Origin: an uncultured Candidatus Peribacteria bacterium
GTDB taxonomy: Bacteria > Patescibacteriota > Gracilibacteria > Peribacterales > Peribacteraceae
Length of the DNA stretch: 64,000 bases
Assembly: GCA_964448405.1 (NCBI GenBank)
Contig: CAYUVW010000001.1
Span: 17,795-81,794 of the forward strand
Reading direction: 5' to 3'
The notes beneath the pieces were generated by a model that had not been told where the DNA came from, made no database searches, and was given only the letters and a program-made list of their open reading frames with translations. The position numbers were made by a program, and so were the translations under genes. Below, piece after piece: positions 3,228-43,681 of the stretch. Positions within the stretch are counted from its first letter, which is position 1; every line of letters begins with the position of its first letter.

Positions 3228-3233
3228 CGGCAG

Positions 3234-3280
3234 GAGTCCAAGGATTTCAAAGAGTTCAAGGAGTCCAAGGAAGATTCCCT
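3234..3280 (+). repeat. intergenic array of ~9-nt units (GGAGTCCAA GGATTTCAAA GAGTTCAA GGAGTCCAA GGAAGATTCC); family 1, forward orientation
   Basis: Read directly. It starts 7 nt after the PMM stop. Its inverted partner lies at 3654-3698. Confidence 0.85.
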
Positions 3281-3653: not shown

Positions 3654-3698
3654 GATTCCTTGGACTCTTTGGAATCCTTGGTTTCTTTGGACTCCTAG
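3654..3698 (-). repeat. family-1 9-mer array, inverted orientation (the reverse complement reads GGAGTCCAAA GAAACCAA GGATTCCAAA GAGTCCAA GGAATC)
   Basis: Read directly. It begins 1 nt after the four-helix-bundle stop. Confidence 0.85.
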
Positions 3699-3727: not shown

Positions 3728-5365
3728 ATGACCTCCCCGCTCTCCCTCACCGGCCGCCAATGGGTCATGCGCCGCGATGCAGTACCCGATCTTATCGAAA
3801 CACTGGCGAAAGAAAGAGGTTTGGACGATGTGGTAACAGGGAAGCCATTAAAACTTTCCGACCCCCTCAAATTTCCCGAGGCCTCCAAAGCCGTCGAACG
3901 CATCGAGCACGCGATGAAATCCGGAGAAACCATCGGCATTTTCGGCGACTACGACGCCGATGGTATTACCGGCTGCGCCCAGCTCGTACGCTACTTTCGT
4001 CGTCACAATATCGAGCCTGTCGTGCATCTGCCGCACCGCGCCACCGAGGGGTACGGCATGAAAATCAGCAGCTTGAACGCATTGCATGCCAAAGGCGTGA
4101 GGGTGCTCATCACCGTGGACACCGGCATTGCCGCCACCGCCGAAATCGCGCACGCCAAGACACTCGGCATGGACGTCATCGTTACCGATCACCACGCCGC
4201 CCCCCAAGGCCGCCCCGACGCATACGCCGTGCTGCATCCGCTCATCCCAACGCCGTTTCCCAACCAGCATCTTTCAGGGTCCGGCGTAGCACTCATGCTG
4301 GTACGTGCGCTCGAACACGGCAAGCCGTGGCCGGGGATAGAACAAGACATTATCCTGGCCGCCATCGGCACTATCGGGGACCTGGTCCCGCTTACCGGTG
4401 AGAACCGCGGACTTGTCATTCACGCGCTGCGCCTGCTTTCTAAATTGCCAGATTCGCCGCTGAAAGATTTTGCCGATGCCGTGCGCGGCCAGAGCGCCCA
4501 GGCGCTTACCAGCACCGATATCGCATTCCGTATCGTGCCGCGCATTAATGCCAGCGGCCGTATCGATCATCCAATTGTGGCGCTGCAAGCATTGCTCGAC
4601 GGAGGAGACTCGCTCGAAAAATTGCATGCGCTGAATACCGAACGCCAGGGCATCACCGGCAAGATGGTCGAGCTGGCCGTGTCGCTGATCGACCCAACGC
4701 AGCCGTTTTTGTGTGTGGCCAACAGCGAGTTCCACTCCGGTGTCGTGGGCCTCATTTCCGGTGCGCTCACAGAACGCTATGGCCGTCCCAGCCTGGTGGC
4801 CGCCGTCACCGGCGACATCTGCACCGCGTCGCTACGCAGTATCCCCCAGGTGAACGTTGCGGCACTGCTGAATATGCCTGGCGTCCGCGACTTGCTTATC
4901 ACGTACGGCGGACACGCGCAGGCCGCCGGTTGCACGTTCAACATTGCCAACCTTGCCGCAGTGCAGACGGCGTTGAATACATGCATGCGCGAACAAGGTT
5001 TTACCGGCGATGCCATGCGACCGGTCCTGCACATCGACGCAACGCTGCCACTGACAAGCGTCACCATCCCGTTCACCGAATCCATTCAGCGACTGGAGCC
5101 ATTCGGCATGGGCAACGATCAGCCGGTTTTCCTATTGCAAGGCCAGTCCATTGAATGGGTTCGCACCGTCGGTGCCGATGGTAAGCACCTGCAATGCCGC
5201 GTGGGTGGCAAGAAAGCGGTGGGCTTTGGCCTGGGAGCGCATGCGCAGTCGCTCACCGACAAAGAGTGTTGGGACGTTGCGTGTACGCTCAGTATCAGCG
5301 ATTGGAACGATAAGCGCGAAGTGCAGCTCATGATGAAAGATATCCGGCCGCTGAAAAAGAGCTAA
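3728..5365 (+). CDS. recJ: single-stranded-DNA-specific exonuclease RecJ
   Basis: DHH-family motifs GIFGDYDADGITG and VIVTDHH, plus overall RecJ length and architecture. Confidence 0.9.
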   Translation: MTSPLSLTGRQWVMRRDAVPDLIETLAKERGLDDVVTGKPLKLSDPLKFPEASKAVERIEHAMKSGETIGIFGDYDADGITGCAQLVRYFRRHNIEPVVHLPHRATEGYGMKISSLNALHAKGVRVLITVDTGIAATAEIAHAKTLGMDVIVTDHHAAPQGRPDAYAVLHPLIPTPFPNQHLSGSGVALMLVRALEHGKPWPGIEQDIILAAIGTIGDLVPLTGENRGLVIHALRLLSKLPDSPLKDFADAVRGQSAQALTSTDIAFRIVPRINASGRIDHPIVALQALLDGGDSLEKLHALNTERQGITGKMVELAVSLIDPTQPFLCVANSEFHSGVVGLISGALTERYGRPSLVAAVTGDICTASLRSIPQVNVAALLNMPGVRDLLITYGGHAQAAGCTFNIANLAAVQTALNTCMREQGFTGDAMRPVLHIDATLPLTSVTIPFTESIQRLEPFGMGNDQPVFLLQGQSIEWVRTVGADGKHLQCRVGGKKAVGFGLGAHAQSLTDKECWDVACTLSISDWNDKREVQLMMKDIRPLKKS

Positions 5366-35745: not shown

Positions 35746-35815
35746 GGATTCCAACGAGTTCAGCGAACCCCTGCATTCCTTGGAATCCTTGGTTTCTTTG
35801 GACTCTTTGGAATCC
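35746..35815. repeat. family-1 9-mer array (mostly inverted orientation: CCTTGGAATCCTTGGTTTCTTTGGACTCTTTGGAATCC)
   Basis: Read directly. It starts immediately after the pgl stop. Confidence 0.85.
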
Positions 35816-38697: not shown

Positions 38698-38786
38698 GGG
38701 ATTCCAAGGAGTCCAAAGAAACCAAAGAGTCCAAGGAAAGTAGGGCATTCTTGGAATCGTCGGAATCCTTGGTTTCTTTGGAATTT
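38698..38786. repeat. family-1 9-mer arrays in both orientations, forming a long imperfect hairpin
   Basis: ATTCCAAGGAGTCCAAAGAAACCAAAGAGTCCAAGGAA ... TTCTTGGAATCGTCGGAATCCTTGGTTTCTTTGGAAT, between the divergent ftsQ and GT4 genes. Confidence 0.85.
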
Positions 38787-40795: not shown

Positions 40796-40853
40796 GGGGT
40801 TCTTCGGACTCCTTGGACTCCTTGGATTCTTTGGTTTCTTTGGAATCCTTCCC
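40796..40853 (-). repeat. family-1 array, inverted (GGGGTTCTTCGGACTCCTTGGACTCCTTGGATTCTTTGGTTTCTTTGGAATCC)
   Basis: Starts 4 nt after the nnrD stop. Confidence 0.85.
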
Positions 40854-40867
40854 GCTATGCTTCTCTC

Positions 40868-41539
40868 ATGATCGATCATCCTTTTGCCAACCTCCGGCCG
40901 TTTGCGAAACAGCTGGATGTGTTGTTCTTGGACAGAGCTGACAACGTCGCCTCGGATGCCGACATTAAGCGCGTGACGGCCGTTGACACACTCACGAGCT
41001 TGCACCAGAAGCACGGCAAGAACGTGGTCGTTGTGCGCGAGGAATCCTCGCGAACGCTGCAAGCCGACGGACTCATCACCGATGTCAAAGGCCTGAGTCT
41101 ACTTATTCGTTTTGCCGACTGCCAAAACTTCGTAGTCTACGCGCCCAAGCACAACGTGGTCGGGCTCATTCATGCCGGATGGAAAGGCGTGGTGGCCGGC
41201 GTCATCCCCGAATTCTTTGCCGTGCTCAAACGCGAGTGGGGCATCGGCGCTGCGGACGTCGTCGTTGGTGCTGGGCCGTCGCTGTGCACCGCATGCGCCG
41301 ACTTCACCGATCCAAATACCGAAGTGCCCACGCTGAAGCCGTTCATCGGTGGTCGCTGCGTGGATTTGATTGCCGCTGCCAACAAACAATTTGCCAATGC
41401 CGGTGTGCCCGCAGCCAACATCGAGCGCATGTCCGAATGCACCCGCTGCAACCCCGAAACACTCTGGACCTACCGCGGCGGACATCGTGAAGAGGTGAAG
41501 AACGGCTTCACCAATTGCCTGGTCGCCACACTCCGATAA
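40868..41539 (+). CDS. pgeF: YfiH/PgeF-family (DUF152, laccase-domain) peptidoglycan editing factor
   Basis: LHQKHGKNVVVV, DGLITD, FADCQNFVVY, GLIHAGWKG and GPSLCTACADF. Confidence 0.85.
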   Translation: MIDHPFANLRPFAKQLDVLFLDRADNVASDADIKRVTAVDTLTSLHQKHGKNVVVVREESSRTLQADGLITDVKGLSLLIRFADCQNFVVYAPKHNVVGLIHAGWKGVVAGVIPEFFAVLKREWGIGAADVVVGAGPSLCTACADFTDPNTEVPTLKPFIGGRCVDLIAAANKQFANAGVPAANIERMSECTRCNPETLWTYRGGHREEVKNGFTNCLVATLR

Positions 41540-41619
41540 TTCCGGTCATTTTCCTCGCCCGATATCCGGCCGCGTGGTAGCATTCCCGACTGTCTCGACG
41601 ACCCGTCAGCCCGCGCATA

Positions 41620-41897
41620 CTTTTTCTCTGACTTATCTTACGGGAGACCAAATCACCTCGGCCCGTGGGCCGAGGATGCGGTCACCCACCTGGCGTACCA
41701 GGGATAGAGTCACGCGGAGCAACGGCCGTTTGGACATATCTACACTCACGAAAGGAAACCTCCGGCTCCCAACGACAAGCTCTTGAGCGGAGCGAAAGGC
41801 TTGGCGTGCAGTCCCCTTTGGGGATTCCCTCTCGTGGACTCTCCTTCGGAAAAGGTGCGTCTCCAGGCAGGCAGAGCCTGCCTTCGACGCGTTTTTA
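41620..41897 (+). ncRNA. candidate structured non-coding RNA, class unknown
   Basis: No credible ORF in 427 nt. Nested helices: GGGAGAC (41642) with GUCUCC (41859), and GAGUCACG (41707) with CGUG(G)ACUC (41833). Perfect hairpins at 41656-41675 (8 bp, CGUG loop) and 41689-41702 (UACG-type loop), plus UCCCC-UUU-GGGGA. It ends in a long terminator stem at 41857-41890 followed by GUUUUUAU. Confidence 0.45.
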
Positions 41898-41923
41898 TGA
41901 AAGTTGCCATGGGGCATATATCC

Positions 41924-41954
41924 CCGTAGGCGCGACGCGACGTCGCGCCTACGG
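41924..41954 (-). terminator. 14-bp perfect hairpin 12 nt after the ssb stop
   Basis: CCGTAGGCGCGACG-CGA-CGTCGCGCCTACGG. No strong U tract. Confidence 0.5.
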
Positions 41955-41966
41955 AATAAGAGCTCC

Positions 41967-42368
41967 TTATTTTTGCTCGACTGCCACTTCTTCGGCAGGG
42001 ACTTCGTCGTCCTGCAACTTCGGGGCCTCGGCTTCGGCCTTGGGTCCAATGAGCACCAGGTTTTCCACCACCACTTCGGTGCGGTACTGCTTGGTGCCGT
42101 TCTCGGCCTCCCAGCTGCGGGTGTGCAAATAGCCCTCTACGTAGAGCGGTTTGCCCTTGCGGATGTACTCGGCGCAGAAGCCGGCAAGCTTGCCCCACGC
42201 GACAAGGTTATGGAATTCGGCGACGCTCTGGCGTTCGCCTTGGGCGTCTTTCCACACGCGGTTCGTTGCCAAACCGAACGTGCAGACGTCTCTGCCACTG
42301 GGCAGTTTCTTGTGTTCGGCATCGCGCGTGGCGTTGCCGAGCAGCATGGTCCTGTTGACCGTTTTCAT
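41967..42368 (-). CDS. ssb: single-stranded DNA-binding protein
   Basis: MKTVNRTMLLGNATRDAE...FGLATNRVWKD...EFHNLVAWGKLAGFCAEYIRKGKPLYVEGYLHTRSWE, with an acidic tail. Start at ATG 42368. Confidence 0.9.
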   Translation of the reverse strand: MKTVNRTMLLGNATRDAEHKKLPSGRDVCTFGLATNRVWKDAQGERQSVAEFHNLVAWGKLAGFCAEYIRKGKPLYVEGYLHTRSWEAENGTKQYRTEVVVENLVLIGPKAEAEAPKLQDDEVPAEEVAVEQK

Positions 42369-42574
42369 AGAGAAAAGGGGGAAGAAATACAGGAGGAACA
42401 TGATGAATTCGCGGCCCCTGCCGTCGCTATCCCCTGACGGGGCCATATCCGGTCGCCAGTCGTTCTTTCCTGAAATGTAAGCCAATCATCCGGTTCCGGC
42501 TCGTCGAAGAATCCCAGCCCAGCGACCGGCTTTGTGGTTGCTGCGCAAGAGACGATGTATGCTGCCGTATCCAG

Positions 42575-43681
42575 ATGCTCCCCATCTCCCAGCGCATGTC
42601 ATCGGCCAATACCCTGCTCATGCCGTACGCCGTACCGCACGGCGGCGGGTTGGGACGCATTCACCCCGAACCGGAAGACTCCACGCGCTTCCCGTTTCAA
42701 CGTGACCGCGACCGCATTCTGCATACGCAGTCGTTCCGGCGCCTGAAACATAAGACGCAGGTGTTCGTCACCGGTACCGGCGACCACTACCGCACGCGCA
42801 TTACCCACACGCTGGAGGTCGCCCAGGTCGGCCGGGACATCGCCCGTACCATGGGATTGAACGAAGATTTGGCCGAGTCCATCGCTTTGGCCCACGACCT
42901 TGGTCACACGCCATTCGGACACGCCGGTGAAGAGGCATTGAATGAATGCGTTCAGCCCTTTGGTAAGCGCTTTGAGCACAATCTTCAGTCACTGCGCATC
43001 GTCACGTTCCTCGAGCAGCGCAGCAAGCATTACGACGGACTCAACTTGAATCGCGAAGTGCTGGAAGGACTCATGAAACACCGCACGCCCCACGATATGC
43101 CCGAGGACCTGGTGCTCGAACGCTCTCCATCGCTGGAAGCACAAGTCGTCAACCTGGCCGACGAAATCGCCTACACCGCCCACGATACCGACGACGGCTT
43201 ACGCGCCGGCATCATCACCACCAATGAACTTCGCATGCTCAAATTGGGGGAACTGGCTTCGGAAAGGGCGAAAGAAACCGGTACGGAAATCCGTGGCGCC
43301 ATTGTGCAGGCGTTGATTCATGACCTCTACATCGCCACCGAGCAAGCGATTGCCGATCGAGGCATTCGCACCCTCGCAGATGTGTACGCCGCACACGATG
43401 ACATCGTTCAGTTCACTGCGGGCATGCGAGAGATGATGAAAGAACTTCGCACATTTCTCTGGACTCGGCTCTACATGAATCCCGGCGTGCAGGCCCAGGC
43501 CAATCAGGGCAAGCAGGTCATCCGAGATGTCTTCGCGGCATACCTAGCCCGCCCGCCCGACAAGGTTCTTGCGCTGCAGAAGAAACACGGCGGAGCCCTG
43601 GAGGAAGCCGTAAAAGACTACGTCGCCGGTATGACGGACGTGTTTGCGTTTGAGCAATGGCGAGCGATCACTAAACAGTAA
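42575..43681 (+). CDS. dGTPase-like HD-domain triphosphohydrolase
   Basis: FQRDRDRILHTQSFRRLKHKTQVF, RTRITHTLEVAQVGR and LAHDLGHTPFGHAGE. Confidence 0.85.
   Translation: MLPISQRMSSANTLLMPYAVPHGGGLGRIHPEPEDSTRFPFQRDRDRILHTQSFRRLKHKTQVFVTGTGDHYRTRITHTLEVAQVGRDIARTMGLNEDLAESIALAHDLGHTPFGHAGEEALNECVQPFGKRFEHNLQSLRIVTFLEQRSKHYDGLNLNREVLEGLMKHRTPHDMPEDLVLERSPSLEAQVVNLADEIAYTAHDTDDGLRAGIITTNELRMLKLGELASERAKETGTEIRGAIVQALIHDLYIATEQAIADRGIRTLADVYAAHDDIVQFTAGMREMMKELRTFLWTRLYMNPGVQAQANQGKQVIRDVFAAYLARPPDKVLALQKKHGGALEEAVKDYVAGMTDVFAFEQWRAITKQ

Follow-up and report, generated by a model that had tools for sequence, protein, structure and literature searches.

The GC-rich gap of ~427 nt between the convergent yfiH-like and ssb genes of an uncultured Candidatus Peribacteria bacterium is very probably filled by two unrelated elements set end to end, a gene for 6S RNA with its own promoter and, behind it, a single copy of a dispersed structured repeat. 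Together with a perfect palindrome close to ssb, the interval consists of three parts: the 6S gene, a three-hairpin module and the palindrome (Table 1). All three lie in a 64-kb stretch of DNA (64,000 nucleotides; hereafter the window) that was analysed as a whole. The first-pass annotation had presented the gap as a candidate novel or unrecognised non-coding RNA. For the first 150 nt the word unrecognised stands and the word novel does not, since orthologues and covariation place this part in the 6S family. A match to a known family was thus essentially obtained for the 6S half, and the module half, which has no family, is the only new element of the interval.

Table 1. Features of the yfiH-ssb gap and its flanks, with positions counted from the first letter of the window.
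Feature	Position	Strand	Basis and remarks
YfiH/Cu-oxidase_4 family gene	40868-41539	+	Left flank of the gap
6S promoter, sigma-70-type (predicted)	41554-41583	+	Conserved hexamers in relatives
6S RNA (SsrS) gene	41588-41737	+	Rfam RF00013, model R1, orthologues, covariation; ends approximate
6S closing stem, 5' strand	41591-41622	+	Pairs with 41707-41736; alignment mapping, duplex predictions
6S central bubble, 5' strand (UUUUCUCUGACUUAUCUUAC)	41623-41641	+	Unpaired in the consensus, pyrimidine-rich
6S apical region	41642-41687	+	GGGAGACC/GGUCACCC (41642-49 with 41680-87) plus hairpin
6S apical hairpin, CCUCGGCC-CGUG-GGCCGAGG	41656-41675	+	Covariation
6S central bubble, 3' strand	41688-41706	+	Includes the small hairpin CCUGG-CGUA-CCAGG (41689-41702)
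6S closing stem, 3' strand	41707-41736	+	Duplex predictions, covariation
Repeat module	41747-41898	left undesignated	Starts ~10 nt after the 6S stem; three hairpins
Module hairpin H1	41747-41836		Arms CACGAAAGGAAACC (41747-60) and GAUUCCCUCUCGUG (41823-36)
Module short hairpin H2	41843-41855		CCUU-CGGAA-AAGG; read from the alignment
Module hairpin H3 and U-tract	41857-41898	+	Conserved flanks, covariation
Perfect 14-bp palindrome, 3-nt loop	41924-41954		Starts 13 nt after the ssb stop (minus strand)
ssb	41967-42485	-	Right flank of the gap

The extent and the structured nature of the gap had been described correctly. The flanking genes stop at 41539 and 41967, and the z-score of the whole gap against shuffled sequence is -4.95 on the plus strand and -3.46 on the minus strand, with 41588-41740 alone giving -4.15. 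The gap appears to contain no credible protein gene. Mechanically called open reading frames traverse 41540-41966, and compensatory changes in the interval point to constraint that would act on base pairing. Sequence from the window is contained in DNA and RNA runs from wastewater metagenomes. Four metatranscriptome runs include the region, on unstranded contigs whose depth is flat (6-9) and which extend across both convergent genes; DNA may be present in these runs, and the contigs say nothing on expression or strand.

The plus-strand z-score, and a minimum-energy fold that has an outer long-range helix, could be taken to mean that all 427 nt form a single large and novel structured RNA, held together by long-range helices. 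Such an RNA is extremely improbable: conservation splits into two independent units, most relatives have 6S with no module behind it while module copies elsewhere lack 6S, and for each strand of the proposed long-range helices there is a local partner, with covariation. For example, a closing helix had been drawn between GGGAGAC (41642-48) and GUCUCC (41859-64), where GGGAGACC in fact pairs locally with GGUCACCC; this local helix shows one-sided (wobble-type) changes at two of its eight pairs in about half of the sequences, and full compensation in isolated sequences only. A second long-range helix, GAGUCACG (41707-14) with CGUGGACUC (41833-41), comes apart in the same way, as GAGU (41707-10) joins ACUU (41619-22) to close the 6S stem and CGUG (41833-36) belongs to a separate hairpin, H1 of the module, in which it is the 3' arm pairing with CACG (41747-50). 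Long-range pairing between 6S and the module is seen in the window, L003 and L005 and is absent from L045 and L018, and it was rejected as not conserved. The proposed hairpins GGAGC/GCUCC and UCCCC-UUU-GGGGA lost their standing as well, because they fall within or next to a 62-nt insertion that the window shares with L002 alone. The hairpins at 41656-41675 and 41689-41702 and the compound hairpin at 41857-41890 with its GUUUUUAU tail are real, the first being the 6S apical stem and the other two being conserved in relatives. The suggested likeness to RNase P RNA drew no Rfam match at E≤10 in 41400-42100, and the same search gave none for tmRNA or SRP RNA; ARAGORN reported neither a tRNA nor a tmRNA for the window, and these three identities were rejected.

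The 6S element is recognised through homology. A search of the 701 nt from 41400 to 42100 returned a plus-strand match to RF00013 at 41588-41740 that spans model positions 1-187 (39.6 bits, E 1.7e-6), and this was the only meaningful match in a permissive Rfam scan of that segment. The score is below the RF00013 gathering score of 46.4 bits, which is an operational threshold and no biological feature, and the window element is absent from a gathering-threshold scan. The only Rfam match at gathering level in the window is a SAM riboswitch (RF00162; 28301-28409, minus strand), with 44.6 bits against a cut-off of 44.4 bits.

For comparison, 80 loci that surround YfiH homologues were taken from species-representative genomes, almost all of which carry the label Peribacteria or Peregrinibacteria. 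An nhmmer search with the interval matched window positions ~41575-41742 in nearly all 80 loci, just 3' of yfiH. Among 20 relatives the orthologous element scores above the RF00013 gathering score in four (L048, 50.1 bits; L061, 47.5; L037, 47.2; L051, 46.7), and these four align with the window element over its whole length. Six further loci were scanned in E-value mode; five match at 27.7-41.8 bits, all below the cut-off, and L045 has no RF00013 match at E≤1. Overall the cut-off is reached in four of 26 scanned relatives, and because the homologous element falls below it in most of them, the Rfam model under-detects Peribacteria 6S. A clade-specific model (R1), built from a 30-sequence MAFFT alignment, assigns 143 bits to window positions 41584-41744 and gives one strong match in 76 of the 80 Peribacteria loci at species level, with no match in 500 kb of unrelated contigs. 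The window holds a single 6S copy. In L059 there are two 6S-like copies, at 4311-4471 and 4850-5013, which are ~380 nt apart and score 70 and 131 bits with R1.

The predicted 6S RNA is ~150 nt long and would fold into a rod made up of a long closing stem, a large central bubble and an apical stem. In the 30-sequence alignment 85.6% of cells are paired, a share that drops to 32-46% once the partners are slid, and compensation is seen at 25 of 51 pairs; in a model-fitted alignment of 81 rows (78 copies), compensation extends to 34 of the 51 pairs. The closing stem comprises 29 pairs, 14 of them with compensatory change among the 30 sequences, and its duplex is predicted in 30 species. In the apical hairpin, eight of nine pairs are compensated in the 30 sequences and all nine in the 81. 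The bubble strands are ~19 nt each; the 5' strand has a conserved UUUCUUCUCUGA motif, and the small hairpin on the 3' strand is paired in 99% of cells, with two of its five pairs compensated.

The 5' end of the RNA was set from the promoter and the Rfam match, and the 3' end lies at or beyond the last pair of the closing stem, at 41736. In the window, the predicted promoter consists of a -35-like CTCGCC (41554-59), an 18-nt spacer, a TGn element (TGG, 41575-77) and a -10 element TAGCAT (41578-83). A TAnnnT hexamer that ends 6-8 nt 5' of a conserved GTCTCG is found in 73 of 78 6S copies, against ~10 expected from shuffles, and a TTGACA-like hexamer occurs 16-19 nt 5' of the -10 element. A generic promoter scan made no call at 41554-41583. 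By analogy with studied 6S RNAs, the transcript would mimic an open promoter and sequester the housekeeping RNA polymerase holoenzyme as growth slows, and synthesis of a short product RNA on the bubble by the polymerase would release it. The template for this product RNA would be the 5' bubble strand.

The element has the rod architecture of the known 6S RNAs (SsrS, RF00013), including SsrS of Escherichia coli and 6S-1 and 6S-2 of Bacillus subtilis. As in those RNAs, the Rfam model is matched over its full length, a small hairpin occupies the 3' strand of the bubble and the GGGAG...CACCCACCUGG core is conserved; the gene likewise has a sigma-70-type promoter of its own, occurs once in the window and is present in nearly all relatives. 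It differs in length (~150 nt versus 184 nt in E. coli, with the apical part shortened) and, along with most of the Peribacteria elements tested, in scoring below the curated threshold. The neighbouring gene is yfiH, whereas in E. coli it is ygfA (5-formyl-THF cyclo-ligase).

The shorter length and the low scores, with four of 20 relatives passing the cut-off and none of the six scanned in E-value mode, also suit an unrelated clade-specific structured RNA, or a structure in the yfiH 3'-UTR, that happens to resemble the 6S rod. Such an origin is highly unlikely, given that every match covers the model from one end to the other, that the GGGAG..CACCCACCUGG core is conserved, and that the element has its own conserved promoter and lies on the opposite strand to yfiH in three loci. 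This last arrangement also implies an independent gene, untied to the yfiH transcript. Homology to accepted members, a rod fold with covariation, a size of ~150 nt and broad conservation in the clade are all found here. The element was filed as 6S despite its sub-threshold score because the cut-off is operational, aligned orthologues pass it and these structural features are present. On this comparative evidence 41588-41737 is a 6S RNA, a member of a known family newly recognised in Peribacteria. A literature search returned nothing linking 6S RNA with the Candidate Phyla Radiation or Patescibacteria; the co-mention of '6S RNA' and 'Patescibacteria' that it did return concerns the mitochondrial SRP.

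With regard to gene order, an HD-domain gene lies directly 3' of 6S on the same strand in L006, L007, L011, L027 and other loci, and ssb does not intervene. Because the HD-domain gene directly follows 6S in many relatives, the adjoining ssb of the window is a lineage-specific arrangement. The mechanical ssb reading frame places 42 residues before the Pfam SSB domain, and the true start is probably an internal ATG (MKTVNRT...) near 42368, which would leave a gap of ~200 nt to the divergent HD-domain gene at 42575. The palindrome behind ssb is unique within the window and is therefore not a repeat there. L001 and L003 have different hairpins at its site, and it may be the 3'-end hairpin of ssb.

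Judged from its copies in related genomes, the sequence downstream of 6S behaves as a dispersed structured repeat of Candidatus Peribacteria, one that appears to be previously undescribed. No family matched 41745-41900 in the permissive Rfam scan of 41400-42100, the modules of six relatives drew no hit at E≤1, and when a clean copy was scanned by itself the only hits were hairpin matches at chance level. The family alignment has 32 members. The unit is ~105 nt long and H1 is a hairpin of 14-15 bp; the window copy is ~150 nt long because its H1 loop carries the private 62-nt insertion (41761-41822). Three A.C mismatches of the window H1 on the plus strand are G.U pairs on the minus strand. The H2 loop is UCCCU in most family members (AGGGA on the minus strand), and its register varies between copies. 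H3 is laid out as GCGUC, UCC, AGGCAGGC, AGA, GCCUGCCU, UC and GACGC, followed by GUUUUUAU (41891-98); its flanks CUCCAG and CUUCG are conserved, 97-98% of its cells are paired and seven of its 12 pairs are compensated. For the module as a whole, 14 of 27 pairs are compensated, and 91% of cells are paired on the plus strand and 95% on the minus strand, compared with 35-48% when the partners are slid. A T-rich tail follows H3 in most copies, although some tails are weak, such as GAUUAUUUC. A second H3 variant, with a longer loop in which a conserved CCCGCGAGACCC-like core replaces the AAA/AGA triloop, occurs in L142, L090, L137, L148, L080 and L052, and the family thus has at least two subtypes. 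A small protein encoded on the module minus strand was considered and rejected: Shine-Dalgarno-like AAGGAG and AGGGAAAGG are present, and neither a start codon nor a frame is conserved between copies. In the copies that were read, no consistent TAnnnT marks a conserved minus-strand promoter beside the T-rich tail.

The distribution of the module differs from that of 6S. An nhmmer search with 41745-41966 matched only a subset of the loci, and in L068 the match lay 1.4 kb away on the other strand. The module model R2 places a copy directly 3' of 6S, starting 2-12 nt after it, in ~20 of 76 loci. The module is absent from this position in most loci, including the close relative L001, and is present in L002; relatives without it have simple hairpin and T-run terminators 3' of 6S. 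The window holds one module copy and L068 holds two. A metagenome search by loose pattern scan and R2 filter, which yields a biased sample, found true copies in nine of 80 listed loci. Among the matches listed there are at least 14 copies in at least nine contigs, with three each in L142 and L090 and two in L137. R1 found no 6S in the nine listed contigs that carry the module. These contigs derive from relatives, as L148 is syntenic with the window at 67-74% protein identity. Since 6S and the module can each be found in the absence of the other, the module is a separate unit.

Copies of the module are found in several kinds of site. The diverged second copy of L068 (5222-5324) lies in frame in an HD-domain (dGTPase-like) gene, and the copy of L056 (5782-5922) lies in frame at a different site of that gene; the two add 28 and 53 residues, respectively, relative to the window homologue, both are antisense to the module plus orientation, and they are the only in-gene copies among ~36 listed. 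Beside tRNA genes, plus-orientation copies begin 4-6 nt after tRNA-Cys and tRNA-Arg (4 nt in a tRNA-Cys case), one copy abuts tRNA-Glu in the opposite orientation, and a tRNA-Arg of L090 sits between two copies of the same orientation (1328-1641). Another copy is 183 nt 3' of the end of a 16S gene. Copies also lie 0-175 nt after the stops of genes for a P-type ATPase, an ACS-like enzyme, an MFS transporter and GluRS and of a gene upstream of lexA, and behind all five of these Pfam-verified protein genes the T-rich end points toward the stop codon. The third copy of L090 (7327-7443) has on one side the duplicated, truncated 5' end of a tRNA and on the other an intact tRNA-Pro, and the resulting flanking repeat of the tRNA 5' end hints at insertion adjoining tRNA genes. 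Comparison of L001, which lacks the module, with L002, which has it, revealed no clean empty site and no clean target duplication, and in the family alignment the module ends are not inverted repeats of each other.

REP/BIME, ERIC and Correia-type elements are dispersed structured repeats of bacteria. Like them, the module is short (~105 nt), forms hairpins and is present in several diverged copies per contig or locus, mostly extragenic and just 3' of stop codons; it likewise shows an orientation bias relative to the upstream gene, can occur in tandem, keeps its structure through compensatory changes and varies in presence among close relatives. It has no sequence similarity to these elements, and it is unlike them in its three hairpins, its conserved internal loop (UCC/UC between CUCCAG and CUUCG), its T-rich tail, and its frequent position at the ends of stable RNA genes, and in showing no terminal inverted repeats. 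The Rickettsia palindromic elements (RPE) are palindromic repeats that lie in frame within protein-coding genes. The two HD-domain gene sites, at which the frame stays intact, are comparable, whereas only two of ~36 listed module copies are within genes, the host clade is not related to Rickettsia and the sequences are not similar. A literature search linked no REP or MITE-type repeats to the Candidate Phyla Radiation. The window also contains a 9-nt unit (TCCTTGGAC or its complement) in short tandem arrays at several intergenic spots (3232-3271, 3657-3696, 35777-35815, 38704-38739 and 40800-40850), and these arrays tend to form inverted pairs around gene blocks; similar short tandem arrays lie 3' of 6S in L020, L035, L037, L059 and L077.

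With a GC-rich hairpin of 13 pairs and G-UUUUU-AU directly behind it on the plus strand, H3 has the layout of an intrinsic (Rho-independent) terminator, from which it differs in its conserved 3x2 internal loop, in the larger conserved module around it and in the weak tails of some copies. A simple terminator scan did not call H3, probably because the internal loop interrupts the stem. From this layout it is plausible that H3 and the UUUUU run act as an intrinsic terminator on the plus strand, and in the window they would probably end the 6S transcript. The plus strand is also favoured by the T-rich tail, by copies directly after 6S and tRNA genes and by the simple terminators of relatives without the module. 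Both in-gene copies are antisense to their gene, as expected if the sense orientation terminated transcription.

The ~20 copies that start 2-12 nt after 6S, together with those 4-6 nt behind tRNA-Cys and tRNA-Arg and the one 183 nt past the 16S 3' end, would also suit a dedicated 3' trailer and terminator of stable RNA genes in place of a mobile repeat. A dedicated trailer is nonetheless unlikely, as some copies follow protein genes in the opposite orientation, and others precede tRNA-Arg, adjoin tRNA-Glu in antisense or sit inside a coding gene. A dispersed repeat remains the preferred description, and the evidence on its working strand conflicts. In 30-32 copies the plus strand has 35 A.C mismatches against six G.U, although many of these A.C mismatches are shared by descent and are not independent events. 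H1 pair 7-73 is A.C in 17 of 30 copies, and its pattern of G-C, G.U and A-U is the one expected of a minus-strand helix. In addition, 14 of 15 module copies fold better on the minus strand, and behind protein genes the module shows a strong orientation bias. Selection may thus act on a minus-strand RNA or on single-stranded DNA, and the terminator role for 6S could then be incidental.

In the window the module faces ssb in the orientation usual behind protein genes, and it may also mark or stabilise the 3' end of the ssb mRNA. In a stronger form of this idea, the module would work on the minus strand as a REP-like 3'-UTR element of ssb and other protein genes, protecting or defining mRNA 3' ends, with its adjacency to 6S incidental. 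This is a real possibility, if somewhat less than an even one. It accounts for the excess of A.C over G.U on the plus strand, including the fixed wobble position, for the better minus-strand folds, for the T-rich end facing the stops of the five protein genes and for the minus strand being the sense strand of both in-gene copies. It does not account for the lack of a hairpin with U-tract in the minus orientation, the conserved T-rich tail being sensible only on the plus strand, or for at least eight post-6S copies that have a co-directional downstream gene and no convergent gene. Plus-orientation copies directly after tRNA-Arg and tRNA-Cys and 183 nt 3' of 16S also argue against it, and many of the A.C mismatches would reduce to common descent. 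A broader proposal, speculative and on balance rather doubtful, is that the module is a structured family specific to the Candidate Phyla Radiation that works as RNA or single-stranded DNA on the strand opposite 6S and is recognised by a protein through the internal loop and the fixed G.U wobble. Such a family would spread to the ends of stable-RNA and protein genes, punctuate transcription in both directions there, and could even be tolerated in frame within genes.

Peribacteria are members of the Candidate Phyla Radiation, a group of small-genome bacteria with a presumed dependence on hosts. The presence of 6S in 76 of 80 species-level genomes suggests that a global regulator of RNA polymerase has been retained in Peribacteria. 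Because so few of the scanned relatives reach the Rfam cut-off, routine annotation will usually miss this RNA, and the alignment and model R1 could correct the missed annotation. Neither the 6S result nor the repeat overturns current understanding, and the repeat is a modest novelty of uncertain function. If the module is a true terminator or mobile element, it would bear on how transcript ends are marked in reduced genomes and could serve as a marker for genome rearrangement in the clade.
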